Positions 19,158-43,853 of a DNA stretch of 64,000 nucleotides are shown in pieces. The position numbers were made by a program, and so were the translations under genes. Each line of letters opens with the position of its first letter. The first letter of the stretch is position 1. This DNA comes from Torpedo marmorata (lineage: Eukaryota): contig OZ360237.1 in the NCBI GenBank assembly GCA_977017645.1, positions 29,884,001 to 29,948,000 on the forward strand, written 5' to 3'. Below the pieces are notes generated by a model. That model ran no database searches. It had not been told where the DNA came from and saw nothing but the letters and a program-made list of their open reading frames with translations.

Positions 19158-19980
19158 ATAGAACACTACAGCACAGTACAGGTCCTTCGGCCCTCGATGT
19201 TGTGCCGACCCATATATTCCTTAAAAAAAAGTACTAAACCCACCCTACCCCGTAACCCTCTATTTTTATTTCATCCATGAGCCTAAGAGTCTCTTAAATG
19301 CCCCTAATATTTTAGCTTCTACCACCATCCCTGGCAAGGCATTCCAGGCACCCACAACTCTGCGTAAAATACTTACCCCTGATATCTCCCCTAAACTTCC
19401 CTCCCTTCACTTTGTACATATGTCCTCTGGTGTTTGCTATTCCTGCCCTGGGAAAAAAGGTGCTGGCTGTCCACCCTATCTATGCCTCTCATAATCTTGT
19501 AGACCTCTATCAAGTCTCTCATCTTTCTACGCTCCAAAGAAAAAAGTCCCAGTTCTGCTAACCTTGCCTCATAAAACTTGTTTTCCAATCCAGGCAACAT
19601 CCTGTAAAATCTCCTCTGCACCCTCTCCATGGCTTCCACATCCTTCCAATAATGAGGTGACCAGAACTGAACACAATACTCTAAGTGTGGTCTTACCAGA
19701 GATTTGTGGAGTTGCAACATGGCCTCTCTACTCCTGAACTCAATCCCCCGATTAATGAAGCCCAGCATCCCATAGGCCTTCTTAACTATCCTATCAACCT
19801 GTGCGGCGACCTTGAGGGATGTATGGATTTGAACCCCAAGGTCCCTCTGTTCATCCACACACTTGTAACCGACCATTAACCCTGTACTCAGCCTTCTGGT
19901 TTGTCCTTCCAAAATGCATCACCTCACACTTATCTGGATTGAACTCCATCTGCCACTTTTCTGCCCAACTCTGCATCCTA
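19158..19980 (-). mobile_element. CR1-type LINE, 5'-truncated
   Basis: ORFs with WAEKWQMEFNPDKCEVMHFG and [17 protein letters not shown]...ERVQRRF; typical tail. Confidence 0.9.
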
Positions 19981-20915
19981 TTCTCATTAGTAGTTGAAAG
20001 AAATTTTACTAGTTTATGAATTACCACCATCATTTGCAAATTACCTGAGACAAATTAGGTTTAAATTACTTTTAATTTCCTAATAACTTGAAAGTTTTTT
20101 ACACCTTTTTTTGACTAGTCATGATTAAAAAACTACTGTGAAAGTGGACTTAAGATTACTTGACAAATGAACGCAAATACGGTTACAAATTTCAGAGTAC
20201 TTTATTCTTGCTTTACAAAGCATGAGAACTCTGTTACAGCAAGAAGCACTGCCACATGCAGCTGGTCTCACCACAAGGGAATCTGCCGCATGGCTCACAA
20301 GTTGCATATTTATACAGACAAACGTCCAGCTTTCCAGAACATTCGATCAGACTTTTCCATACAAGTACATGTTTCTTAGGATTCATTATACCGGCTCATG
20401 TCCCTTACCCAATGGTTAATAGTCTTTTACTGTCTTTGCCAAATATGGAGTTGTTGTTGTTGTTGTTCACAATCAGATTTAGCCTGAACATATACAATGG
20501 AATGTTCTCTGCTTCTCTACATTTGTCACGACTTTAAGACTCACATTCTCACTACAGTTATTGAAACAGAAGTTATTGCACATTATTTGTCCCATACCTC
20601 ACTGGAATTGTCAACTAGGAAAGCCTTGGGAACACCATGGTTAGACATTTAAATGCCAAGATTAAATGCATTGTAATTCTTTAAATTAAGATCAGAAATG
20701 TTTACTCAATCAATCTCACTGACACAAACATTCCAAAAGCCCTTTCTTAACCAGTAATAAAAAAAATCTGAAGATGGTGGAAATGAACAACAAAAAATGC
20801 TGGATATATGTAGGTCAGGTAGCTTCCATGGATTGAGAGAGTTAACATTTCAGATCGATGAAGGTCTCAAAACAATAAATATTGCTTCCTACTTAGACGC
20901 TGTCTGATTTACTAC

Positions 20916-21819
20916 TGTTACAGAATCAAACCAGCAACGACAGAAGACGCAATGCAAAAGGGGTAAAAATTGAAATTATTATTTATTAAACACAAGTAAA
21001 CATATAATTTCACAACAATTAACCCCACTATAAACGTCTATAAACTCTATTCTTATCTAAAAGGTGTATGTGTGTGTGTGTAAAGCCCAGACCATTACAG
21101 TCTGTGCCCAACCCTTATGTAAAAAATGGAAAACCTTTCCCCAAAAACCCCAAGTCAGTCATAAAACAACAAGTCAGTCAAAAAAAAAGATAAACAGTCC
21201 ACAAGATTCACTCTCTAAGTTCAGGCTTCACTTCAGCTCTGGGTCTGGTAGAAGTACTTCTGAATGAACGTTGGAGAGAGACAAATGACTGTTATGCTTA
21301 CAAATACTTGTTTTCTTCTCTGATGACATCCCCTTCTTGTAGGTTCATAAGGATTGCAAGTTCCAGATCAGTATACCACTGATTTAGGCGTATGCTTGAA
21401 TCTCACAGCTAGTCTCGCTGATCTCACGCCTGTTCTCCACAGAAGTTGCTTTTCTCTCAGAATTTCTCTCTGAGACAGGAGGCCATGTGCTATTTTGCCA
21501 GATTTTCTCTGACTGCACACACCCCTGGATACTGGCTGTGTTCTGTAGCCTTGCAACTCACAACTGTGTCTGCTTTGCAGAGATCTGCCCCTGCTTTTTG
21601 CAGAAGTGAAACAAATGTATCTTATCCAGTCTGTCTCTCTTTCTCTGGTCTCTCTCTGTCTGGGTACACCAAAAGTGTGCAACAATGTATCTTGTCTGGG
21701 TACACCAAGTAGCTGGGGAAGTTAACTCTTTCAGTACCTGGCCCCAGTGTATACTCCAAAAGAATTCATCCTTCCTGCTAACCGTCCGCAGTCCAAATGG
21801 TCAGTCATGGTCCATAACA
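20916..21819 (-). repeat. 3' LTR (904 bp)
   Basis: Direct repeat of 25910-26813; minus-strand AATAAA at 20982-20987; PPT GAGGGAGGGAGG adjacent (21820-21831, minus strand). Confidence 0.95.
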
Positions 21820-21949
21820 CCTCCCTCCCTCAAAGGAAATTTTGGTCTGCAAGAACAAAATTTAGGAAAGTAAGTGAGGTGTCAGAATATAAACAAAATC
21901 TACAATGTTTATCCACAAATACAATATGAACTATTTTCATTGATAAAGT

Positions 21950-24900
21950 TTAACAACTAGAAAGACAATCAGCAATTACATTATCTCTCCCTTTTATATG
22001 AGTGATTACCAAATTATATTCATGTAAAATTAGACTCCAATTCAACAACCGTCGATTCTTATTTTTCATTTTACAAAGAAAAACCAATGGATTATGGTCA
22101 GTATACACTATGAGTGGTTTTTGAGCTGTACAGATATACACATCAAAATGTTGTAGAGCCAACACAAGAGCCAACAACTCTTTCTCTATAGTTGAATAAT
22201 TCCTTTGATGATCATTGAACTTCTTCGAGAAGTAGGATACCGGATGGTCAATGTCCTCTTCGTTCTTCTTCTGTAACAGCACCGCACCCACAGCTTCATC
22301 GCTCGCATCCACGGCTAAAGAAAACGACTGTTCTAAATTAGGTGACTTAAGCACAGGTTGGTGGCATAACATGGCTTTCAATTTGACAAATGCTTCCTGA
22401 CAACCTGTAGACCATACAAATTTCTCTTTCTTTCTAAGCAAATTTGTGAGAGGGAGCGCAAGATCAGCAAAGTTTTTACAGAACTTGCGGTAGTAGCCAA
22501 TCATTCCCAGGAACCTCCTCAGAGTTTTCTTACTAGTTGGAACAGGGAACTCGGAAATAGTGACAACCTTTGCCTCTACTGGTGCCAATTGCTCCTGTCC
22601 TACTACATAACCCCGAGAATTAACAGTCCCATGACCCTCTCTGAAACTGGTTTTATCTGTCTCCTCCTTACCCCTGTCAATAACCAGTACCTCTGGTACA
22701 TTTTCAGTCCCTTTGTGTGGCACCTGTTCAAAATATGGTTTAATCATATTCACATGACAGACCTGTGTGTCTCGTCTGCGATTAGGTGTTTCTATGACAT
22801 AGGTGACATCATTAATTTTTGACTTAACTCTATAGGGTCCTGAAAATCTAGCCCTAAGATGATTTGAATGGATGGGAAACAGAACTAATACGTTCTCACC
22901 AGGTTTAAAAGTTCTCATCTTTGCCTTTCGATCATACCAAACCTTCATTTTCTGTTGAGTGGCCTTTAAATTCTCCTTTGCCATCTCACAAGCCCTATGT
23001 AACCGATCCTTAAATTTGGAAACATAATCTAACAGATTTAAATGCACATCACGATTAATCCACTGTTCTTTTAATAATCTTAAAGGACCTCTCACCTCAT
23101 GTCCGAAAACTAACTCAAATGGACTAAAACCAAGCGAATCTTGGACAGACTCCCTCGCTGCAAATAACAACAAATGAACCCCCTCATCCCAATCCTTTTC
23201 CTTCTCACAACAATAGGTTCTAATCATGGTTTTCAAAGTCGAATGGAACCTCTCCAAGGCCCCTTGACTTTCTGGATGGTACGCAGAGGATACAATCTGT
23301 TTAACTCCTAGTCCATCAACCACTTGTTGGAAAACGCCTGACATGAAATTACTGCCCTGATCTGATTGAATTTCCCTTGGCAAACCTACCAAGGTGAAAA
23401 ACTTTACCATAGCCTTTACAATTGACTTCGCTTTTATGTTTCTCAGAGGAATGGCCTCTGGAAATCTGGTGGCTGCACACATAATTGTTAACAAATATTC
23501 ATTCCCCGCTTTGGTTTTGGGCAATGGGCCAACACAGTCCACAATTACTCTCGAGAAAGGCTCACTAAACGCAGGGATAGGTTGCAAGGGTGCCACCGGG
23601 GGACCCTGATTAGGTTTACCCACTACCTGACAAGTGTGACAGGCCCGGCAAAAGCTTACAACCTCCCTTCTCAAACTGGGCCAATAAAACTGTTTCATTA
23701 TCTTACTTATAGTTTTCTTCACCCCAAGATGACCACCTAAGGGTGTACTATGAGCCAAAGTTATTATTTCACCCCTATATACTTTAGGGATCACAACCTG
23801 TTGCACTACTGCCCATTCTTCATTGGCAGGAACATCACGTGGTCTCCACTTTCTCATCAACACCCCATCTTTTTCATAATAACCTACTGGCACCTTTTTA
23901 ATCTCCTCTTCAGAGAGAACCTTATCCCTCACCTCAGCAAGATCCGGATCGTCTTTTTGCCTTGCGATTAACTCCTGTCGGGATAGTGACAAATCTGTGC
24001 CTTTAGGTGTCTTATCAGTGGATGGGTGTAACATAGGAGATTGCTCAACCTTTTCCAGGTTTTCTTGATTATCAGTTTCTTTTTCTTTTACCAAGTTATT
24101 TTCCACTGCCTTCTCTACAGTGACATTTTTCTTAGACATGGCCCTGGTTATGGCACATGCCAGATAAATATCAGAGTCCTTCTCTGACTTATCAATGACT
24201 GGCTTAGTGGTCATTCGCACTGCAGGAACTACTTTACCCTTGGCCAAGTCATTGCCTAACAACAGTGAGACTCCTTCTACGGGCAACTCTGATCTCACTC
24301 CTATTATAACTGGTCCTTCCACCAAGTCTGAGTTCAATACTATTTTGTGCAAAGGAATGGACTCAACCTCACCACCAATTCCTTTTATTAAATTTATGTC
24401 ACCGGTGTCAGTAGCTTCACAAAATTCCAAGACACTATCTAACACAAGTGACTGAGCAGCTCCAGTATCTCGCAAGATTTTCACTGGCACTTGTTTTGAT
24501 CCTGCCTTAACTGAAACAAAACCATCAGTCACAAAAGGTTTAAATACATCTTTAACTTGGTCAGTAAATTTATCTCCTTCCTGGGTGTTATGCATCTTCT
24601 CACTCTGCATACAAGCATTAGGTGTTGCATCCTTTTCTCTCTTCTTTTTCAACACTGGACAGCTTGCTAGCATATGACCTTCCTTCCTACAGTAGTGGCA
24701 AATGGGACCTGAATTGTTTTCCCTTTTCCACTTTCCTTCATCCCTTTCCTTAACACCACTTCCAAATTTACTTTCCACTTGCTTCTGATTATCCACCGTG
24801 ACCTTTTGGAAAATTCTACCTGACGTCCACTTAGGCTTGTGGGTTAAAGCATATCCATCTGCCAACTTAGCTGAATCTCGCCAAGTTTTCACCTCCTTTT

Positions 24901-25777
24901 CATCTAAGTATACCTTAATATCCTCAGGAACACACCTTTTTATCTCCTCGATTATTATCAATTCTCTCAATTGATTGTAATCATTATTTACTTCCTTAGA
25001 TGTGCACCACCTGTCAAAACACACAACTTTTTCATAGGCAAACTCTGTATAAGATTGGGTTGCTGATCTTTTTAAATTTCTAAACTTCTGTCTATAAGCC
25101 TCTGGAACTAACTCATAAGCCTGGAGTATAGCCTTTTTCACCGTTTCATAATCAGCAGCTTGCTCTGTGGTGAGAGTAGAATAAGCTTGCTGAGCTTTTC
25201 CTTTTATTACACTTTGTAACATAAGAGACCATTGGTCTTGTGGCCATTTTAATTTCACAGCCACTTTCTCAAAATGTTGGAAGTACTTATCTATTTCTGC
25301 TTCCTCAAATGGAGGAACCAACCTAACTTCTCTACTAGCCAAAAACCCCTCAGCAGGATGACGAATTTGACCTTGGTGCTCTTCTTGTCTCCTCTCATTT
25401 TCCAACTTTATCTTTTCCAGCTCATATCTCCTATTTCTCTCATCATTCTCGTGTCTCTTTAGTTCCAATTCCATGTCTAATTTCCTTTTTTCCAATTCCA
25501 ATTTCTTTTGTTCCCTGGCTGCCTCCAATTCCAATTTCTTTAATTCCAACTGTATGTTTTCAGAAGGTTTACCCTTGGGAAACTGCTCTAACATGCTCTC
25601 CTCAAATTTTTTTTCTTTTATATAGTATTTGACTATTTTTCTCCCAATCTCTGCCTTTTTCATAGATGGTTTTACAGAAGCAATGCCCAACTCTGTTGCT
25701 ATAGCCACTAACTGTTCCTTTTTCGCCTTTTTTAAAGTATCAGGTTCAGGTGATTCCAAAAATTGTTCTACATCCAT
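21950..25777 (-). CDS. Gag-Pol polyprotein (~1275 aa from the first ATG): coiled coil, SCAN-like capsid, CCHC knuckle, protease, integrase, RT thumb remnant, RNase H
   Basis: CHYCRKEGHMLASC; LRDTGA; H..GGH...C..C; VDCVGPLP / SDQG / GALE; GPY motif; LRRFLGMIGYYRKF; VDASD...EKE...TDHNPL...ADCLS. No YxDD motif present. Confidence 0.93.
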   Translation of the reverse strand: MDVEQFLESPEPDTLKKAKKEQLVAIATELGIASVKPSMKKAEIGRKIVKYYIKEKKFEESMLEQFPKGKPSENIQLELKKLELEAAREQKKLELEKRKLDMELELKRHENDERNRRYELEKIKLENERRQEEHQGQIRHPAEGFLASREVRLVPPFEEAEIDKYFQHFEKVAVKLKWPQDQWSLMLQSVIKGKAQQAYSTLTTEQAADYETVKKAILQAYELVPEAYRQKFRNLKRSATQSYTEFAYEKVVCFDRWCTSKEVNNDYNQLRELIIIEEIKRCVPEDIKVYLDEKEVKTWRDSAKLADGYALTHKPKWTSGRIFQKVTVDNQKQVESKFGSGVKERDEGKWKRENNSGPICHYCRKEGHMLASCPVLKKKREKDATPNACMQSEKMHNTQEGDKFTDQVKDVFKPFVTDGFVSVKAGSKQVPVKILRDTGAAQSLVLDSVLEFCEATDTGDINLIKGIGGEVESIPLHKIVLNSDLVEGPVIIGVRSELPVEGVSLLLGNDLAKGKVVPAVRMTTKPVIDKSEKDSDIYLACAITRAMSKKNVTVEKAVENNLVKEKETDNQENLEKVEQSPMLHPSTDKTPKGTDLSLSRQELIARQKDDPDLAEVRDKVLSEEEIKKVPVGYYEKDGVLMRKWRPRDVPANEEWAVVQQVVIPKVYRGEIITLAHSTPLGGHLGVKKTISKIMKQFYWPSLRREVVSFCRACHTCQVVGKPNQGPPVAPLQPIPAFSEPFSRVIVDCVGPLPKTKAGNEYLLTIMCAATRFPEAIPLRNIKAKSIVKAMVKFFTLVGLPREIQSDQGSNFMSGVFQQVVDGLGVKQIVSSAYHPESQGALERFHSTLKTMIRTYCCEKEKDWDEGVHLLLFAARESVQDSLGFSPFELVFGHEVRGPLRLLKEQWINRDVHLNLLDYVSKFKDRLHRACEMAKENLKATQQKMKVWYDRKAKMRTFKPGENVLVLFPIHSNHLRARFSGPYRVKSKINDVTYVIETPNRRRDTQVCHVNMIKPYFEQVPHKGTENVPEVLVIDRGKEETDKTSFREGHGTVNSRGYVVGQEQLAPVEAKVVTISEFPVPTSKKTLRRFLGMIGYYRKFCKNFADLALPLTNLLRKKEKFVWSTGCQEAFVKLKAMLCHQPVLKSPNLEQSFSLAVDASDEAVGAVLLQKKNEEDIDHPVSYFSKKFNDHQRNYSTIEKELLALVLALQHFDVYICTAQKPLIVYTDHNPLVFLCKMKNKNRRLLNWSLILHEYNLVITHIKGRDNVIADCLSSC

Positions 25778-25881
25778 TGTTGCTGGTTTTTCGTTACACA
25801 CACACTAGCTTTTAATTAGCTTTACCAAAAGGAATGCCTTAAACCAAACTGGGATTCCTTCAATTACCAAGATGGATTTTG

Positions 25882-25906
25882 ATTCAAATCCCGCAACGAG
25901 CCCCCA
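25882..25906 (-). promoter_or_regulatory. Primer-binding site, tRNA-Pro-like
   Basis: Minus strand TGGGGGCTCGTTGCGGGATTTGAA just inside the 5' LTR; the canonical tRNA-Pro PBS is TGGGGGCTCGTCCGGGAT. Confidence 0.85.
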
Positions 25907-25909
25907 ATT

Positions 25910-26813
25910 TGTTACAGAATCAAACCAGCAACGACAGAAGACGCAATGCAAAAGGGGTAAAAATTGAAATTATTATTTATTAAACACAAGTAAACATATA
26001 ATTTCACAACAATTAACCCCACTATAAACGTCTATAAACTCTATTCTTATCTAAAAGGTGTATGTGTGTGTGTGTAAAGCCCAGACCATTACAGTCTGTG
26101 CCCAACCCTTATGTAAAAAATGGAAAAACTTTCCCCAAAAACCCCAGGTCAGTCATAAAACAACAAGTCAGTCATAAAAAAAGATAAACAGTCCACAAGA
26201 TTCACTCTCTAAGTTCAGGCTTCACTTCAGCTCTGGGTCTGGTAGAAGTACTTCTGAATGAACGTTGGAGAGAGACAAATGACTGTTATGCTTACAAATA
26301 CTTGTTTTCTTCTCTGATGACATCCCCTTCTTGTAGGTTCATAAGGATTGCAAGTTCCAGATCAGTATACCACTGATTTAGGCGTATGCTTGAATCTCAC
26401 AGCTAGTCTCGCTGATCTCACGCCTGTTCTCCACAGAAGTTGCTTTTCTCTCAGAATTTCTCTCTGAGACAGGAGGCCATGTGCTATTTTGCCAGATTTT
26501 CTCTGACTGCACACACCCCTGGATACTGGCTGTGTTCTGTAGCCTTGCAACTCACAACTGTGTCTGCTTTGCAGAGATCTGCCCCTGCTTTTTGCAGAAG
26601 TGAAACAAATGTATCTTATCCAGTCTGTCTCTCTTTCTCTGGTCTCTCTCTGTCTGGGTACACCAAAAGTGTGCAACAATGTATCTTGTCTGGGTACACC
26701 AAGTAGCTGGGGAAGTTAACTCTTTCAGTACCTGGCCCCAGTGTATACTCCAAAAGAATTCATCCTTCCTGCTAACCGTCCGCAGTCCAAATGGTCAGTC
26801 ATGGTCCATAACA
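25910..26813 (-). repeat. 5' LTR (904 bp)
   Basis: Near-identical to 20916-21819; only three substitutions seen by eye. Confidence 0.95.
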
Positions 26814-29197
26814 CTACACAATCCAACAGTTTCTATTTTACTTTGTAGTCCTATATTATTTCATCAGTTTACTCAAGTATCAGGTTGAGCCCAGGCAGTA
26901 ACTTGTTTCCAATTACACAAAACTACAAAATGGAGCTAAAATTTCACTCCACTAATTTTACAAACAAGTCTATCAGATCTGTGTGATGTTAAGTTGAAAC
27001 AGAACTAAAGTAACTGTTTTTGAAGAGTTTCACTTTTTCATGGAGTCTGACCATCAATAAAAATTAAATTTTCTTCAAATGATGTTTAATTTACAGTTTA
27101 ACAGAAACCTAAATTAGTCATTCTCAGCTGACATAGCAACAGAATGGAGCATGATTCCTTGATGGAATCTTACTCCGGTTTTGTCTTCAACTATTTCAAC
27201 TATCATTAGTTTCAAACTAATGTTACAATAACAGGGTAAATGCATCTTTACATTTATATGTGAACATATTCTTGTACCCTTTTTACTGCCATAGCAGTGC
27301 AAGATTATGGTTTCTCAGCTGCATTCATTGTCTTAAGTTGAGCTTGCAATATTGGTGCTTAATTAAAAACTCTTGCAATACTAGTTTGGTTTAACATTTT
27401 TGTGAATGTTGCAGGTAAAAATAATCAGTTCACTTCCTGCAAGTTATTTTTAGTGAATTCAATGGCTCAAATCAAGGATGTATAATGGCAATTTTATAAG
27501 TAGCTATCCACTGTATCCAAGACTATGTAGGGGGCTGGATCTCTGATAATTTTGGGGCAAGGTAAAAATAGCCTAACTCTCAAAAAAAAACAAGACTCCA
27601 AGGGAAGGAAATCTCATCTATTTTAGCTTTTGACACAATTTACAGATTTATGAGGTGGTTAATTTCAATTCACATCCTCATTAAAGGGTTAATTAAAAAC
27701 AAAATCTAACCTAAAATCATCAAAATCTCTTGCTAATTTAATCTGCAACAGTAGACCATTAAGATGATCCTACCAGGTGACAGAAATCCATTATGAAATT
27801 GCCTGCACTGACGCAAGTTTGGTTTGAAGTTATCTTGCATGTTGCAATGTGGATCAGGAAATCACAAGTATAATGCTTGTATTTTTCTTTCACTCCACAT
27901 ATCATTTGATTTTATGATAATCAATTTGGAAGATTACATGTTCTGTTCACTATTTAATCCTATGGTGAACTAAGCATTTACGCTGATATAAGAGTTCACA
28001 TTTGAATCAGCAGGTGCAAGGGCTAAATGGTCACAGGTGGAGAGCAAGTTCAGCTGGAGGAGGCAGGCTGTCATATGAAGGCACAGTTTCTATTGGTTAG
28101 CGGCATAAAATATGTGAAATTGTCAAAGCAGAGCAAAGGTGAGATAAATTTTAAATGCAAATTACATAAAGCGGTGGGTTAAAAATTTTCAACTTGTATT
28201 TTTGGTTTAATTTGGCACATTTCTTCAATATTTATTAAGGTTTTGAAAAATAAGTTCTTAGTTATTTAGTTATATTAGTTATGTTATTTCTAGTTATTTG
28301 AAAAAATCAGTCAATAGATACATTTACCATCAGACAATGCAACAGAGTCAGAATCAGTAAATAATAACAATAACAGGCTAGTTCAGACATTATCAGAATA
28401 ATTTTATTTAATATAATTGTAGAGACACTTTTTTCATCTACATCCACCCACTTTTAATCTTCTAGGCGTTGTTACCACTCTCGTAGCATTGATAATGGTA
28501 TCTCACAAACAAATGGAGTTGTCAGTATTCTTCATGAGTACATTGAAGGCTATTATTGGAATTCTTTTACCAGGTGAAAAAAAAAATCCAGGAAAATCTT
28601 TGGAGGTATTTTGGGTTCTAATTGGTTAAAATCAAATTTAAGCCTTAAAAGCAATTCAAGCAAGGCTAGCCGCGATAATGGCTGTGCTTCCACTTCAAGC
28701 AAACAAGATCAGTTACTGCCAATGCATTGAGAGAGTTAGCCAGGTTTGGTTCATTTTATGTAATTTTAGAATTGCGATAAATGCCAGATGAGAAATTAAT
28801 GACAAAATACGTATGTTATCGAGCAGCAAGAAATCAACAACCTTCAGTCAACTAACATAATTATTTTCCAATCTTCTTTAGAGTTTGGGAATATTAGGTA
28901 GAGCTTTACATAAAAAATACGTAAATAGGAGCAGGAGCAGGCGAACTGGCCCATCAAGCCTGCTCCACCATACAATAAAATCAAGGCTGATCTGCTGTAG
29001 ACACAGGTTCCACTTACCCGCCTATTCCCCCATTACTCTTTATTCCCTTCAAAATCTATCTGTCTTAAATACCTTTACTGCTTCATTGGGCAGAGATTTC
29101 CACAGATTCACTTCTCTCTGGGAGAAGCAGTTCCTCCACATAATCTTCTTGAATCTACTCCCCTGAATCTTGAGGCTATGTCCCCCAGTTCTAGTCA

Positions 29198-30370
29198 GAT
29201 TTCACATTTATTGTCAGAGTACATACATGACATCACATACAACCCTGAGATTCTTTTTCCTGCGGGCGAGGCAGAATTACCACTTATTGGTAGTGCAAAA
29301 AAAAACGGACTCAACATACACATGTGAACAAATAATGTGAACAAACTGACTGTGCAATACAGAGAGAGAAAAATCAATAAAGTGAAAAAGTAAGAGTCCT
29401 TAAATAAGTCCCTGATTGAGTTTGTTGTTGAGGAGTCTGATGGTGGAGGGGTAGCAGCTGTTCCTGAACCTGGTTATGCGAGTCTTGTCGCACCCATACC
29501 TATTTCCTGATTGTAGCAGCGAGAACAGAGCGTGTGCTGGGTGATGTGGATCCTTGATGATTGCTGCTGCTCTCTGACAGCAGCATTCCCTGCAGATGTT
29601 CTCGATGGTGGGGTCGGTTTTGGGCTGTCCTGGGCTCTGTCCACTATCTTTTGCATGGCTTTCTGCTCAGGGGTATTGGTGTCCCCATACCAGACCGTGA
29701 TGCAGCCAGTCAGCACACTTTCCACCACATATCTGTAAACATTTGCCAAGGTTTCTGGTGTCATACCAAACCTCCGCAAACTCCTGAGGAAGTAGAGGCG
29801 CTGACGTGCTTTCTTCACGATGCCATTAGTGTGTTGGGTCCTCTGAGATAGTGACTTCCAAGACCTTAAATTTGCTCACCATCTCTGACCCCCAATGATA
29901 GATGGGTCGTATACACCTCTGGTTTTCCCTTCCTGATGTCAATAATCAGCTCCTTGGTTTTGGTGACATTGAGTGAGAGGTTGTTGTTGGTGCACCATTC
30001 AGCCATGTTTTCAATCTCCCTCCTGAATGCTGACTCATCACCCCTTTTTATACAACCCACTACCGTGGTATTGTCAGCAAATTTGTAGATGGTGTTATTG
30101 TCGTACCGAGCCACACAGTCATAGGTGTCAGGTGAGTAGAGCAGGGGGCTAAGAACGCAGCCCTGTGGTGTTCCGGTACTGATGGAGATTGTGGAGGAGA
30201 TGTTCTTACCAATCCTTACTTATTGTGGTCTGGAGGTGAGGAAATCCAGGATCCAATTACTCAGTGGGGTGTTGAGTCCAAGGTCTTGGAGTTTGCTGAT
30301 CAATTTTGAGGGGATGATTGTGTTAAATGCCAAACTGTAGTCGATGAAGAGCATCTTGATGTATGCATCA
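29198..30370 (-). mobile_element. Rex1/Babar LINE, 5'-truncated
   Basis: IYKFADNTTVVG, WCTNNNLSLNVTKTKELIID and KKARQRLYFLRSLRRFG motifs; tail ...TGACAATAAATGTGAAATCTGA. Confidence 0.85.
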
Positions 30371-34778: not shown

Positions 34779-36215
34779 GGCCGATGTCAGAGCATCGTTC
34801 AAGAGGGTGAATCCTCGCAAGGTGTCAGGCTTGATGGCGTACCTGGCAAGGTACTGAAAATCTGTGCCAACCAACTAGCCGGAGTGTTCACGGACATTTT
34901 TAATCTCTCACTGCTGCAGTCGGAGGTTCCCACCCGCTTCAAAAGGGCACCAATCATCCCGGTGCTCAAGAAGAGCAGAGTGATCTGCCTCAACAACTAT
35001 TGCCCACTACCATGAACATCTACTGTGATGAAATGCTTTGAGAGGTTGGTCAAGGCCAGAATTAATAGGTACCTAGGCAAAGGACTGGCCCCACTGCAAT
35101 TCGCCTATCTTCACAATCTCTCCACAGCAGACGCAATATCAATAGCTCTCCACTCAGCTCTGGATCACCTAGAAAACAGCAACTCATGCAATCGGCTGCT
35201 CTTCATTTACTACAGCTCAACCTTCAACACCAATATTCCCTCAGTGCTGGTCAACAAGGTCCAAACCCTGGGCCTCTGCACCCCTTCTGCAACTGGATCC
35301 TTGACTTCCTTATTGGAAGACCACAGTCAGTATGAATTGGAAACAATGTCTCCTCCTCACTGATGATCAATACAGGCACACCTCAAGGATGCGTGCTTAG
35401 CCCACTGCTCTATTCACCGTACACTCATGACTGTGTGGCTTAGCATAATTCCAATGCTATCTACAAATTTGCCGATGACACCACGGTTGTCAGCAGAATC
35501 ATAAACGACAATGAGGAAGTGTACAGGAGGGAGATAGATCAGCTAGTTGATTGGTGTCACACCAACAACCTTGCACTCAACGTTAGCAAAACCAAGGAGA
35601 TGATTGTGGACTTCTGGAGGAAGTCAGGAGAACACGGATCAGTCCTCATCGAGGGCTCAACAGTGGAGAAGGTCAAGAACTTCAAATTCCTGGGTGTCAA
35701 CATCTCCGAGGATCTGTCCTGGGGCCTCCATGTCGATGCAATCACGAAGAAGGCTCGCCAGCGGCTATACTTTGTGAGGAGATTCGGTATATCACTGAAG
35801 ACTCTTGAAAATGTACAGGTGTAACGTGGAGAGCTTACTGGCTGGTTGCATCACTGTCTGGTACGGAGGTGCCAATGCTCAGGACAGGAAAAAACTCCAG
35901 AGGGTTGTTAACTCGGCCTGCGACATCACAGGCACCAGTCTTCACTCCATCGAGGACATCTACAAGAGGCGGTGACTTAAGAAAGCAGCCTCTATCCTCA
36001 AGGACCCCCACCACCAGGCCATGCCCTCTTCATTCTGCTGCCATCAGGAAAAAGGTACAGGAGCCTGAAGACGAGCACTCATCGGCACAGCTTCTTCCCC
36101 TCTGCCATCAGATTCCTGAATGAACAATGAACCACAGACACTGCCTTACTTTGTCTTTTTCTTGCACTATTTTTAAAAATTTATTTCGTAAGGTGGTTTA
36201 TATAAATGTTTGCAC

Positions 36216-38043
36216 ACCAAAGTCATTCCATTGGTTAAATTTGACTGTACGGAATGTAAACGTATAGATTTGTTTAAATGGATTAAAGAGGGTATAAAAT
36301 ATCTTGGTATAATGGTAGATACTGATTTAAAAAATTTATATGCTTAATTATTCTCCACTTCTTTGTAAAATTGAAGAAGATTTATTGAGATGATGTCATT
36401 ATCTATTACCTTGATTGGTTGGGTTAATTGTGTTAAAATGAATATATTACCAAGAATACAATATTTATTTCAGTCTCTACCTATTTTTTTACCCAAAACT
36501 TTTTTTCAAAATTTGGATAAAATTATTGGGCGATTTATATGGAGAAATAGCTAGAATGGCTACACGAAAATTAACATGGGATTATAGACTGGGGGGTCTC
36601 CGTTTACCTAACTTTAGAAACTATTATCTAGCTGCACAGCTGCGATTTATTATATCTTTTTTTGAAGGGGTTAATACACCATCTTGGATACAACTTGGTC
36701 TACATCCCTTGAAAGAAGAAGTTTATAGTGATCTTATATATAAATGGAATTTTAAAACTATAACTAAAAGAACTGATAATTCAATTTTAAAACATTTGCT
36801 TAAGATTTGGGGGGATACCCATGAAGGTTTGAGAATTAAAAATATAGTGTCACCTAAAACATCCTTAAGAAAGAATGAACTTATACCTATGACTCTTAAT
36901 AATAGAGCAATGAAATTTGGAATAGTAAAGGAATTAGATATATAGAAGACTGTTATGAAAATGCACTTCTTATGTCTTTTGAAGGATTGAAAGAGAGGTA
37001 TAATTTACCAAATAGAACTTGTTTTTTTGATATTTTCAGTTACGTTCATATCTTAGGAATACTTTAGGACCTGATATGGTCCTACCCTCATTGACAGATG
37101 CAGAAAAAATACTTCAAGAAGGAAATACGTATAAATTTATTTCAAGAATGTATTTATTGTTACAAGATCAAGAGCCTAAATTGGGACATAATAAGTCCAG
37201 GATAAGATGGGAATCAGACTTAGTTAGGTATAGTAATTGATGAAGAATTATGGTTAGAATTGTGTCAGAATAGTATGTTAATTACTATAAATGTACGTTA
37301 TAGATTGGTCTCCTATAATTTTCTTCATCAATTATATTTGACCCCACAGAAATTACATAAATTTAAACCAGAATTATCAGAGATGTGTTTTAGACGTGGA
37401 ATGGAGGTTGGTTCTTTTTTACATTCGACATGGATGTGCTGTAAATTGAGACAATTTTGGCATAATCTCTGTGACATCTTATCTAAAGTTACTGGAGTTA
37501 CTCTAATTTTAGATCCAGAGATATGCCTTTTGGGAAGTTTTACTACTATTAAGGACACCCTAACCAGATATCAAATTATATTTTTGGGAATAGCTTTTTG
37601 TGTGGCTAGAAAGTGTTTAGTGACTACTTGGAAGTCAGATTCCCCATTGTCTATTGATAGATGGACCTCAGAAATAAATAGTTGTATTCCATTGGAGAAA
37701 ATTACGTATAACATTAAAAACAAACAGGTTATTTTTTATAAAATTTGGCAACCTTATTTAGATTATTTGGGATCAGGATAAATTAAATTAAAGAAGATTT
37801 GCTATTAATTAGTTGCCGGGAAGCAATTATATAAACATTGTCGACCATTTGTTTTGTTTAGTTTGTTTTTTTTGGTATTTTTTTGGGGGGGGAGGTTTGG
37901 GGTAATTGGGTTTTTTTCGTTTTTTAAATTTCTTTTTATTATATATGTTACATTTATTGTATTACTATATAATGTGATAACTATTTTTGAAGTATTTTGT
38001 TAAAAATGAAAATAAAATATTTTTAAATATATAAAATAAAAAA
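36216..38043 (+). mobile_element. L1-clade LINE, 5'-truncated (ORF2 C-terminus, 3' UTR, A-rich tail)
   Basis: GGLRLPNFRNYYLAAQ and the HQLYLTPQKLH...C...H..W.C..L..FW zinc region; G-rich 3' UTR; 14-bp TSD ATAAATGTTTGCAC (36202-15, 38044-57). Confidence 0.88.
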
Positions 38044-42169: not shown

Positions 42170-43853
42170 TCCACTCATTCCTTCCCATTAATCGCCCCCT
42201 TGCCACCTTGCCCCATGGCCGCAGGAAGTGACACACTTGCGCCCACACTTCCTCCCTCAGCACCATTTGGGGCCACAAACAATCCTTCCAAGTGAAGCAA
42301 CACTTCACTTGTGAAGTTAAAAACACAATACTGGAGAAACTCAGCAGGTCAAACAGTGTCTTTTATATAGCAAAGATAAAAATAGATAACCGATGTTTCG
42401 GGCTCAAGTTCTTCATCAATGGTATGGAAAAATGTCGTCAGGCGCCCGAATAAAAAGGTAAGGGGGGCGGCGTAGGGGGAGGAGCATGGTAGCAAAGGCA
42501 GGAGGTAATAGGTGGAGAAGGGAGGGTGGGCACAGCAGTAAGCAAGGGGCGGAGGGATGGCTAGGTGAATAGAGAGGGAAGGGGGTGGAGTGAAGCAACA
42601 TTTCACTTGTGATTCCGCAGGATTGATTTACTGCATCCGGTGCTCCCTTTGTGGCCTTCTCTTCATCAGAGGGACTGGGCGCAGACTGGGAGATCGCTTC
42701 ATTTTCTCTGTCCGTACCAGTGACAGGGATCTTCCAGTGGCCTACCATTTCGATTCTACGTCCCACTTCCATACCCGCATGTCTATCCATGGCCTCGTGT
42801 ACTATCCCACCAAGATCACCTGTAAATTGGAGGAACAACACCTGATTTTCCGTCTGGGCACTCTCCAGCCGGATGGCATTGACATCGATTTTTCCAGTTT
42901 CTGCTAACTTGCTCTCCCTCCCTCCCCTTCCCTTTGTCTTCTTTCCCTCAGCTCTCCACCCCCTTTCCTCTCTATTCACCTAGCCATCCCTCCTCCCCTT
43001 GCTTACTGCTGTGCCCCCCTCCCTTCTCCACCTATTACTTCCTGCCTTTACGACCACACCTCCCCCTTTACCCTTTTATTCGGATGCCTGCTGACATTTT
43101 TCCGTACCTTGATGATGGGCTCAAGCCCGAAACGTTATGTATCTTTATCTTTGCTATATAAAAGACACTGTTTGACCTGCTGAGCTTCTCCAGCATTGTT
43201 TTTAAATCAACCATGGTGTCTGCAGACTTTCGTGTTTTACTTCACTTGTGAATCTGCCAGAGTCATCTACTGCATCCGGTGCCCCTGTTGTGGCCTTCTC
43301 TACATTGTAGACTGGGAGATTGCTTCGCTGAGTACATTTGCTCTGTCCGCATCAATGACAGGGATCTCCCAGTGGCCAACCATTTCAATTCTGCGCCCCA
43401 CTCCCGTGCCGACACGTCTTTCCATGGCCTCATGCAACACCAAACCAAGGCCACCCATAAATTGGAGGAGCAACACCTAATATTCTGTATGGGCACTCTC
43501 CAACTAGATGGCATTAACCAATTTCTCTGGTTTTTGCTAGACCACTCCCCGTTCTCCCTCTCTTCCCTATCCCTCTGTCTCCTTTGCTCCAGCTCTCCAC
43601 CCCCTTCCCTCTCAATTCACACAGCTATCTCCCCTCCTCCTGTTTGCTGGTGTGCCCTCCCTCCCTTCTCCTACCTTGGGCCTGTGCTCCTCCCCCTGCC
43701 TTTCCTCCTAACATTTTATTCAGGCACCTGCCCACATTTTGCTTATTCCTTGATGAAGGGCTCAGGCCCGAAACATTGATTATGTATCTTTATCTTTGCT
43801 ATATAAAGTACGCCGTTATGGCCTGATGAGTTTCTCCAGCATTGTGTCTTTAC
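42170..43853 (+). mobile_element. Two nested Penelope-like retroelement 3' fragments with GIY-YIG endonuclease remnants
   Basis: Translations FTCESARVIYCIRCPCCGLLYI, RRLGDRF, LPVANHFNSAPHS and KLEEQHLIFRLGTLQPDGI. The inner copy (42316-43238) has an inverted pLTR and a 14-bp TSD ACTTCACTTGTGAA. Confidence 0.85.

Follow-up and report, generated by a model that had tools for sequence, protein, structure and literature searches.

The LTR retrotransposon described here, which lies in a 64-kb stretch of Torpedo marmorata DNA (the window, that is, the whole stretch analysed), carries an in-frame deletion allele of a Gmr1-like family, present in at least 18,000 copies, that lacks the polymerase core of reverse transcriptase (RT), and it probably behaves as a cheater that shares particles with the RNA and RT of complete copies of the same family. 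The element is evidently a non-autonomous LTR retrotransposon, in that an essential enzyme is missing, the defective form has been amplified, and a partner shares its primer-binding site (PBS), LTR ends, polypurine tract (PPT) and period of activity. Unlike usual members of that category, the deleted form constitutes no lineage distinct from its partner.

Anatomy of the window element

The features of the element, all on the minus strand except the target-site duplication (TSD), for which no strand applies, are as follows.

25910..26813 (-): 5′ LTR, 904 bp, TG..CA ends, three differences from the 3′ LTR
20916..21819 (-): 3′ LTR, 904 bp
20912..20915: left TSD, 4 bp
26814..26817: right TSD, 4 bp, identical to the left copy
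25889..25906 (-): PBS, starting 3 nt past the 5′ LTR
21820..21831 (-): PPT, adjoining the 3′ LTR
21950..25777 (-): single Gag-PR-IN-(thumb-RNase H) open reading frame (ORF), 1275 aa
24836..25105 (-): SCAN-like capsid C-terminal domain, aa 225-314 (PF02023, E=5.7e-10, above cut-off)
24653..24703 (-): CCHC zinc knuckle of the nucleocapsid, aa 359-375 (motif visible, weak sub-cut-off Pfam matches)
24458..24475 (-): aspartic protease active-site motif, read from the sequence
22733..23791 (-): integrase, with H2C2, DDE core and SH3-like C-terminus, aa 663-1015 (Pfam)
22626..22636 (-): deletion joint, an 11-nt imperfect microhomology; 771 nt of RT N-terminus, fingers and palm missing
22610..22624 (-): decayed primer-grip codons, aa 1052-1056, private to the deleted allele
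21953..22609 (-): RT thumb and RNase H, matching Ty3 RT chain positions 260-474 (4OL8, E=4.5e-36)

The original prediction described near-identical LTRs, a perfect TSD and a stop-free frame of about 1275 aa, and all three are borne out by exactly 3 mismatches over the 904 LTR positions, a 4-bp TSD and an ORF of the stated length running from an ATG at 25777 to a stop at 21950-21952. A Pfam search of this ORF matched SCAN, zf-CCHC, Integrase_H2C2, rve, Integrase_p58_C/SH3 and RT_RNaseH. The predicted loss of the polymerase core agrees with the lack of any RVT_1 match in the ORF at E<=0.1 and of a [YF]xDD motif within it, and alignment to Ty3 RT finds positions of about 1-254 missing. The four acidic RNase H residues that were thought to be kept (D1157, E1200, D1227 and D1270) all align with their Ty3 counterparts.

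The jump near 22640 that had been noticed is real as a loss of the RT core and mistaken as a change of frame: relative to complete copies, the element carries an in-frame deletion of 771 nt (257 codons) located at the 11-nt microhomology. Similarly, the degenerate residues reported beside the deletion are present only directly after the joint, while the stretch of approximately 30 residues that separates the joint from the end of the integrase is a normal IN-RT linker, which complete copies also possess. The skipped segment has no GT..AG ends. The deletion begins near the predicted N-terminus of RT, and the cut may take out the IN/RT cleavage site. The PBS probably resembles the 3′ end of tRNA-Pro; a query of the genome with the PBS region returned zero matches, so this primer tRNA is putative. 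There are no tRNA genes within the 64-kb window.

Copy numbers and complete partners

Exact matches to the junction number 18,186 in the genome, against 7,049 for the undeleted form (controls returned 2 and 1), a ratio of deleted to complete of about 2.6 to 1 in which the deleted form makes up approximately 72% of counted copies. Among 40 family copies, taken as every second match among the first 80 listed, 31 are deleted at one breakpoint and 9 are complete. As had been proposed, the deletion is thus older than the insertion in the window. The joint is also found in contigs of the public runs X1, X2, X5 and X7 (four of the seven different runs searched); that it was not seen in X3, X6 and X8 carries no weight as a negative. 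Run X7 is RNA by guess only, and the joint in it does not imply transcription. A pattern to the left of the joint gave 12,822 matches with both forms counted, a figure that undercounts complete copies since a deletion-linked site lies inside the pattern.

A search for a YLDD-bearing relative with a similar LTR and PBS had been suggested, and copies of this kind, with YIDD as the motif, exist. The complete copies that were fetched contain it, share LTR type, PBS and PPT with the deleted form, cover the same range of ages, are up to 97% identical to the window copy in internal and LTR sequence, and show LTR-LTR divergence down to 0.2%. RT-core matches lie inside open frames of more than 1500 aa in 7 of the 150 scored, and the RT of a complete copy has Ty3 RT (4OL8) as its best match (E=5.5e-89). 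The same PBS variants occur in deleted and complete copies. The two forms are also of comparable age: median LTR divergence is 2.0% for deleted copies (28 datable of 51 position-sampled) versus 1.9% for complete ones (13 of 28), and distance to a young copy differs little (Mann-Whitney P=0.43, 50 vs 28), with all position-sampled copies coming from the first 19 Mb of one contig. Deleted-to-complete counts by age bin are 13:7, 17:6, 8:11 and 12:4, such that constancy of the ratio through time is only rough. A 4-bp TSD flanks 43 of 67 copies, of both forms, whose ends were located by a crude search.

From these shared features, the helper is evidently the complete copies of the same family. An older RT-bearing family, recovered with a Pristis RT query, was rejected as the helper: its identity reaches only about 68-78%, its own ends show no LTR match, and no open frame among 150 scored exceeds 1061 aa.

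Origin, recombination and selection

The deleted form evidently arose once, because a tree of the 60 nt on each side of the joint (120 rows) requires 3 state changes, versus 35.4 when the states are shuffled. A tree of the rest of the element requires 30 versus 33.3 shuffled, so the deleted form is not a distinct sub-family there, and both forms span the oldest to the youngest parts of the family tree. The r² between the deletion and SNPs is 0.46 within 50 nt and approximately 0.01 further out, whereas between pairs of SNPs it holds at around 0.11 up to 3.2 kb; for far SNPs, the mean r² with the deletion (0.0080) is below its permutation null (0.0108), and all four gametes, each in at least 3 copies, occur at 144 of 144. 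One copy with a different internal deletion (L122) was left out of all linkage work. Five near-identical duplicates on contig 47 were excluded from the disruption and dN/dS, four-gamete and far-SNP, decay-age and primer-grip-window analyses, and retained in those of LTR age, r² decay, trees and the primer-grip peptide.

The deleted form is likely a long-lived allele in a recombining population, with co-packaging as the route, and co-packaging would fit the recombination pattern. A single template jump between two short repeats may have produced the deletion. Deleted RNA would then be packaged together with complete RNA and polyprotein, and template switching by RT between packaged RNAs would keep shifting the deletion onto the current family background. 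Since Gag and RT come in equal numbers from a single-ORF element, and a particle can do with few RT molecules, RT would be a shared good; the shorter form could thus reach about 70% without fixing, held by frequency dependence in the manner of a defective-interfering genome.

An alternative, quite unlikely in our estimation, retains the same co-packaging and recombination and views the mixture as a division of labour that benefits the family and is itself selected: deleted copies, once translated, would supply the bulk of Gag, protease, integrase and perhaps a free thumb-RNase H, correcting a 1:1 Gag:RT ratio. The deletion is in frame and takes out almost exactly the polymerase domain, and the available parts of published accounts describe Gmr elements as one fused ORF (PMC11117352) and Ty3 RT as drawing polymerase and RNase H from different subunits (PMC5371799). 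Against this, Ty3 dimerization requires substrate and relies on polymerase-domain residues that are missing here. Of the 10 other joints listed for run X1, scored on an intact reference, only 5 preserve the frame, and the idea that amplified deletions are mostly in frame was dropped on that count. A reciprocal, integrase-less form, seen among the proteins of another animal genome (P0068/P0048), suggests that any shareable enzyme is droppable.

Selection on the deleted copies bears on the same question. The cheater reading predicts weaker selection on deleted genomes, yet no excess of ORF disruptions is observed in them: per 100 private substitutions there are 26.8 in deleted versus 25.4 in complete copies (P=0.64), shared disruptions have odds of 1.36 (P=0.07), and 6 of 9 very young deleted copies are intact. 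Variants private to deleted copies (each in at least 3) comprise 15 synonymous and 24 non-synonymous over 690 and 2652 sites, a dN/dS of about 0.42. Of the copies that span the protease active site, 61 of 62 deleted ones and 39 of 41 complete ones retain its Asp, and the integrase D, D and E are present in 69/70, 70/70 and 70/70 deleted copies. Purifying selection on these domains could, however, be supplied by complete genomes via recombination, and their conservation is therefore no proof that deleted copies use their own proteins. Common non-synonymous changes affect four neighboring primer-grip codons, in three cases replacing a hydrophobic residue with a polar one, where 0.67 would be expected under neutrality (P=0.005 for 5 codons), and none of 1090 other four-codon windows holds at least 3 such codons. 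This cluster, which would favor a division of labour, hinges on a window chosen post hoc, with P=0.05, 0.06 and 0.15 for 10, 15 and 20 codons.

It is highly improbable that the deletions are instead produced anew from the complete genomes now present, whether through splicing or through repeated microhomology jumps, or spread by gene conversion between genomic copies. The microhomology at the joint would permit such recurrence, and the loss of linkage beyond 50 nt is expected under it as well. Fresh deletions, however, should bear a complete-type flank, whereas the original primer-grip peptide is kept in 46 of 48 complete and only 2 of 71 deleted copies; three of the four tabulated derived flank bases occur as a second allele in 0 of 48 complete copies, and the fourth likewise in 0 of 48. 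These private flanking mutations largely refute a recurrent origin, and together with the missing GT..AG ends they rule out splicing as the source of the deletion. Furthermore, the primer-grip residues decayed stepwise in replicating copies, and the extent of decay beside the joint correlates with the age of the backbone (Spearman -0.71, P=8e-9, in 50 position-sampled deleted copies), which indicates that patch and backbone were joined at replication and not later; such agreement is unexpected under later gene conversion.

A separate non-autonomous lineage co-evolving with a helper lineage, which was the original prediction and is the arrangement described for wheat Angela or Quinta/Cereba, is not supported and is more improbable still. 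The single origin of the deleted form is compatible with this arrangement, as is a slight clustering of the deleted state in the LTR tree (19 changes versus 23.3 shuffled, 4.5% of shuffles as low) and the gag tree (26 versus 31.8, 2.5%), both built from sets that contain near-identical duplicates and copies chosen for likeness to the window element. Opposed to it are the interleaving of deleted and complete copies across the entire family tree, where starred branches force at least 11 changes, and the four gametes at every far SNP. An assembly collapse, or a post-insertion deletion unique to the window copy, which had been named at the outset as the opposing case, has next to no probability given the genome-wide junction matches and the joint in contigs of other runs, and no support for it was found.

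Relation to known systems

Gmr1-like Ty3/Gypsy elements (Metaviridae) are described, in the accessible portions of two sources, as encoding a SCAN-like capsid, PR, IN and RT-RH in one fused ORF (bioRxiv 10.1101/2025.03.03.638093; PMC11117352). The window family likewise places a SCAN-like capsid upstream of PR, has IN before RT-RNase H in the window copy and complete copies, fuses Gag and Pol in one ORF (1275 aa in the window copy; in seven complete copies, 1514-1562 aa counted from Met), and has an RT of Ty3/Gypsy type, seen in a complete copy. By domain order, capsid and fused ORF it is evidently Gmr1-like, with its RT a putative member of the Gmr1 clade. The difference lies in the large majority of counted copies here that are without the polymerase core, a form for which no published account was found in the literature searched.

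Autonomous/non-autonomous pairs are known in wheat and barley, including Wilma with Sabrina/WHAM, Angela, and BARE1/BARE2 (PMC9744471), as well as Cereba with Quinta (PMC11302176). As portrayed in the consulted sections of these papers, they too are high-copy, enzyme-lacking LTR elements moved in trans, with PBS, LTR ends and age in common with the helper and some keeping Gag or Gag-protease; they differ in that RT and IN are lost together, Gag is lost or decay is total, and in that each makes up a sub-family or family of its own. In the window family nothing but the polymerase core is missing, and the deleted form is one allele of a single recombining population. The non-autonomous grass pararetroviruses eRTBVL2 and ePVCVL, which lack RT/RH, offer a second parallel in the available text (PMC5491270), with RT loss, structural genes kept, dependence on a partner and homogenization with it by recombination. 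These lose RT and RNase H together, are without integrase or LTRs, comprise 13-24 segments and are homogenized mainly in a non-coding region, whereas here the whole element is shared except for about 100 nt.

Defective-interfering viral genomes and internally deleted mouse IAP elements carry deletions at short repeats, need a helper polymerase and outnumber the helper. The window element resembles them as an internal deletion derived from its helper and dependent on it; the 2.6:1 copy ratio is what bears on a possible lowering of helper replication. In contrast, its ORF remains in frame, and germline copies that can be dated document the contest throughout the history of the family.

The family is a dated germline record of a helper-cheater contest, with approximately 25,000 copies that can be counted. 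Long-standing questions become open to testing with sequence data alone: the frequency with which LTR retrotransposon RNAs of separate loci enter the same particle and recombine, the validity of cis-preference, and the stability of a cheater's frequency over time. Domain conservation in a defective element is no guarantee that its own proteins are in use, and surveys that demand an RT domain would overlook the majority form, which may occupy as much as about 107 Mb (18,186 x 5.9 kb, were every copy full length). A broader generalization is possible, if rather doubtful: single-ORF Gmr1 elements might repeatedly evolve in-frame alleles lacking one enzyme, the polymerase in this family and integrase in another animal genome, balanced within one recombining family, with the polymerase-less majority here translated as a supply of Gag, IN and RNase H, much as frameshifting or splicing serves elsewhere, and a two-genome consortium as what replicates. 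Other RT-less Gmr1 forms, looked for among proteins, turned up only as single or low-count records (P0126, P0139 and P0145), with no amplified family among them. Among named relatives, the best is a Pristis pectinata protein, at 59% and 76% identity on the two sides of the gap.

A Gmr1-like element lacking its polymerase core

The copy in the window is a Gmr1-like Ty3/Gypsy LTR retrotransposon on the minus strand (20916-26813), organized as follows:

20916-21819, minus strand: 3' LTR, 904 bp
Adjoining the 3' LTR on its upstream side, minus strand: purine tract
25777 to 21950, minus strand: single open reading frame (ORF), 1275 aa
25889-25906, minus strand: primer-binding site (PBS), starting 3 nt past the 5' LTR
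25910-26813, minus strand: 5' LTR, 904 bp

The original prediction is borne out for the LTRs (3 mismatches across 904 bp), the target-site duplication (TSD; 4 bp) and the 1275-aa ORF. Its proposal that the RT core is absent and the RNase H acidic residues retained also stands: a Pfam search of the ORF recovered SCAN, integrase and RT-type RNase H domains and no RVT_1, no YxDD occurs anywhere in the 1275 aa, and the C-terminal part aligns with Ty3 RT chain positions 260-474 (thumb and RNase H), including all four acidic residues. RVT_1 is present in 120 of 120 protein relatives of this C-terminal region, among the matches listed. The Gmr1 domain order follows bioRxiv 10.1101/2025.03.03.638093. 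What had been read as a frame jump is instead an in-frame deletion of 771 nt (257 codons), with an 11-nt imperfect microhomology at the joint (22626-22636). Aligned to Ty3 RT, the deletion begins at most a few residues from the RT N-terminus, whose predicted position is extrapolated, and ends inside the primer grip.

No second copy of the family lies within the 64-kb window; genome-wide, copies sharing the deletion are abundant. An exact 16-nt motif across the joint has at least 18,186 matches (reversed-pattern control, 2) and that for the undeleted continuation at least 7,049 (control, 1), in a 6.2-Gb assembly possibly containing both haplotypes. A pattern lying left of the joint has 12,822 matches; among 40 copies sampled as alternate hits from the first 80 listed, 31 continue like the window copy and 9 run into a full RT. 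The possibility that the deletion is an assembly collapse is ruled out because the joint recurs in contigs of four of seven public sequencing runs (X1, X2, X5, X7, from four studies and four coded organisms), which represent either four species of host or samples that include DNA of the host. A second, rarer joint (L062:4903-5526, runs X1 and X5) removes the greater part of the RT core, leaves 12 other letters in between and is apparently in frame.

Several features vary in both forms. The PBS varies past its first 11 bases as several recurring alleles, suggesting that primer tRNA pairing may be limited to a short stretch. The Gag coiled-coil region (about 25400-25530) carries many shared in-frame length variants of 3-27 nt, and ORF length spreads over ~40 aa among intact copies. 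Elsewhere in the window, frames at 19394-19918, 29477-29875, 35444-35821, 36442-37778 and 43252-43776 are presumably non-LTR retroelement fragments, from the look of their peptides.

One deletion in a recombining population

Linkage and trees were computed from 72 deleted and 48 complete copies mapped to one natural complete copy, with one locus (L122) dropped. The tree of 60 nt on each side of the joint requires 3 state changes versus 35.4 with shuffled labels. The primer-grip peptide is intact in 46 of 48 complete versus 2 of 71 deleted copies, and its decay in the latter is stepwise, with step number tracking backbone age (Spearman -0.71; 50 position-sampled copies). Because of these three observations, we infer that the deletion arose once and has replicated since the oldest sampled copies, consistent with the predicted origin before insertion. 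The deleted copies nearest the window copy around the joint (L161-L166; G000:C47, 95.6-100.1 Mb) lie in tandem arrays with common flanks and shared LTRs, and are duplicates of one insertion rather than independent events.

The separate polymerase-less lineage originally envisaged does not hold. Between the deletion and SNPs, r² falls from 0.46 within 50 nt to about 0.01 farther out, with SNP-SNP r² holding near 0.11; far SNPs have a mean r² with the deletion of 0.0080 (permutation null, 0.0108), and all four gametes occur at 144 of 144. The rest-of-element tree has the shape of a ladder on which the two forms occur together at almost all levels (30 changes versus 33.3 shuffled), and the integrase (36 versus 37.6) and thumb-RNase H (33 versus 35.9) trees are similar. 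Away from the joint the forms are indistinguishable, apart from slight clustering in LTR (19 versus 23.3) and gag (26 versus 31.8) trees, whose sets include duplicates and window-like picks.

Of 150 places scored by a query with the RT core of one complete copy, 7 lie in open frames >1500 aa; the sample of complete copies comprised the 20 longest plus 20 further complete-type copies chosen by position. The long copies supply the predicted YxDD-bearing relative: they carry YIDD, are 93-97% identical internally to the window copy with LTRs 85-97% alike, share their PBS variants with the deleted form and have 4-bp TSDs, and their own LTR pairs diverge by as little as 0.2%. Expressed as LTR divergence or distance to a young copy, position-sampled deleted and complete copies are of the same age: median LTR divergence is 2.0% (range 0-6.9; 28 of 51 datable) and 1.9% (0.8-4.4; 13 of 28 datable), respectively, and distances do not differ (Mann-Whitney P=0.43). 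An older RT-bearing family was rejected as helper at only ~68-78% identity. Its near-identical matches at one locus (L120) and on small contigs (C300, C408, C639, C1151 and others) are likely one old insertion within a large tandem array. Another locus (L152; G000:C47, 88.86-88.88 Mb) holds five RT-bearing tandem units spaced 5814 nt apart, with identical repeats in the stretch examined.

Probable copying in trans, and selection

Template switching between co-packaged RNAs is established retroelement biology. A polymerase-less genome would have to rely for its copying on RT made by complete copies, and such switching, if deleted and complete RNAs share a particle, would most simply carry the old ~100-nt patch onto each successive background. 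Gene conversion at a later time would leave patch stage and backbone age unmatched; deletion arising repeatedly, or splicing, would leave complete-type flanks, unlike the decayed primer-grip flank of deleted copies. Gmr elements encode one fused ORF (PMC11117352); each Gag thus brings an RT, and particles likely hold an RT surplus. With such a surplus, the shorter, polymerase-less genome might spread until RT turns limiting; deleted:complete counts by age bin are 13:7, 17:6, 8:11 and 12:4, numbers too low to establish that the ratio held constant.

Family-wide dN/dS, older versus younger copies, is 0.16-0.32 in Gag, protease, integrase, thumb and RNase H (1.2 in one linker), and catalytic residues are equally kept in both forms; because of recombination, neither is creditable to the deleted form. 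Hints of selection in cis are the preserved frame of the deletion, a disruption load equal to that of complete copies (P=0.64), intactness of 6 of 9 very young deleted copies, and a dN/dS of about 0.42 for variants private to deleted copies. Four adjacent primer-grip codons are also changed, three from hydrophobic to polar, versus 0.67 expected (P=0.005), an excess that weakens in wider windows (P=0.05-0.15). Since Ty3 RNase H activity resides in the second subunit of the RT dimer (PMC5371799), a donor role for the thumb-RNase H fragment is conceivable by analogy.

Relation to other defective elements

The polymerase-less element is real, high-copy and helper-dependent. Helper-served non-autonomous LTR elements are already well described: Sabrina and WHAM lack RT and integrase, Gag is missing from BARE2 and the non-autonomous form of Angela co-evolves with sub-families that are autonomous (PMC9744471), Cereba obtains Gag from Quinta (PMC11302176), and pararetroviruses without RT/RNase H have non-coding regions homogenized with those of their partners through recombination (PMC5491270). 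What is unusual here is that the defective form is the commoner allele of a population that recombines freely, not a lineage. No deletion confined to the polymerase core and behaving as an allele within its family was found in the open literature, PMC5753468 included; subscription journals, Repbase entries or supplements may hold an earlier record.

A high-copy Gmr1-like family with intact RT (P0046-P0120, P0241-P0254), known from another genome at the protein level only, appears from its sequences to be the reciprocal. Among 120 relatives listed, 63 proteins >1000 aa have protease and RT without an integrase core, 62 of them with the same kind of junction peptide. One, P0068, represents 299 members and has lost in frame ~245 residues spanning the integrase zinc finger and core; its integrase-bearing sibling P0048 matches it at 94% identity through the first 786 aligned residues and has 245 extra residues at the P0068 junction. 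In single or low-count records of other families (P0126, P0139, P0145), the integrase C-terminus leads directly into thumb-RNase H, and the RT core is largely or entirely gone.
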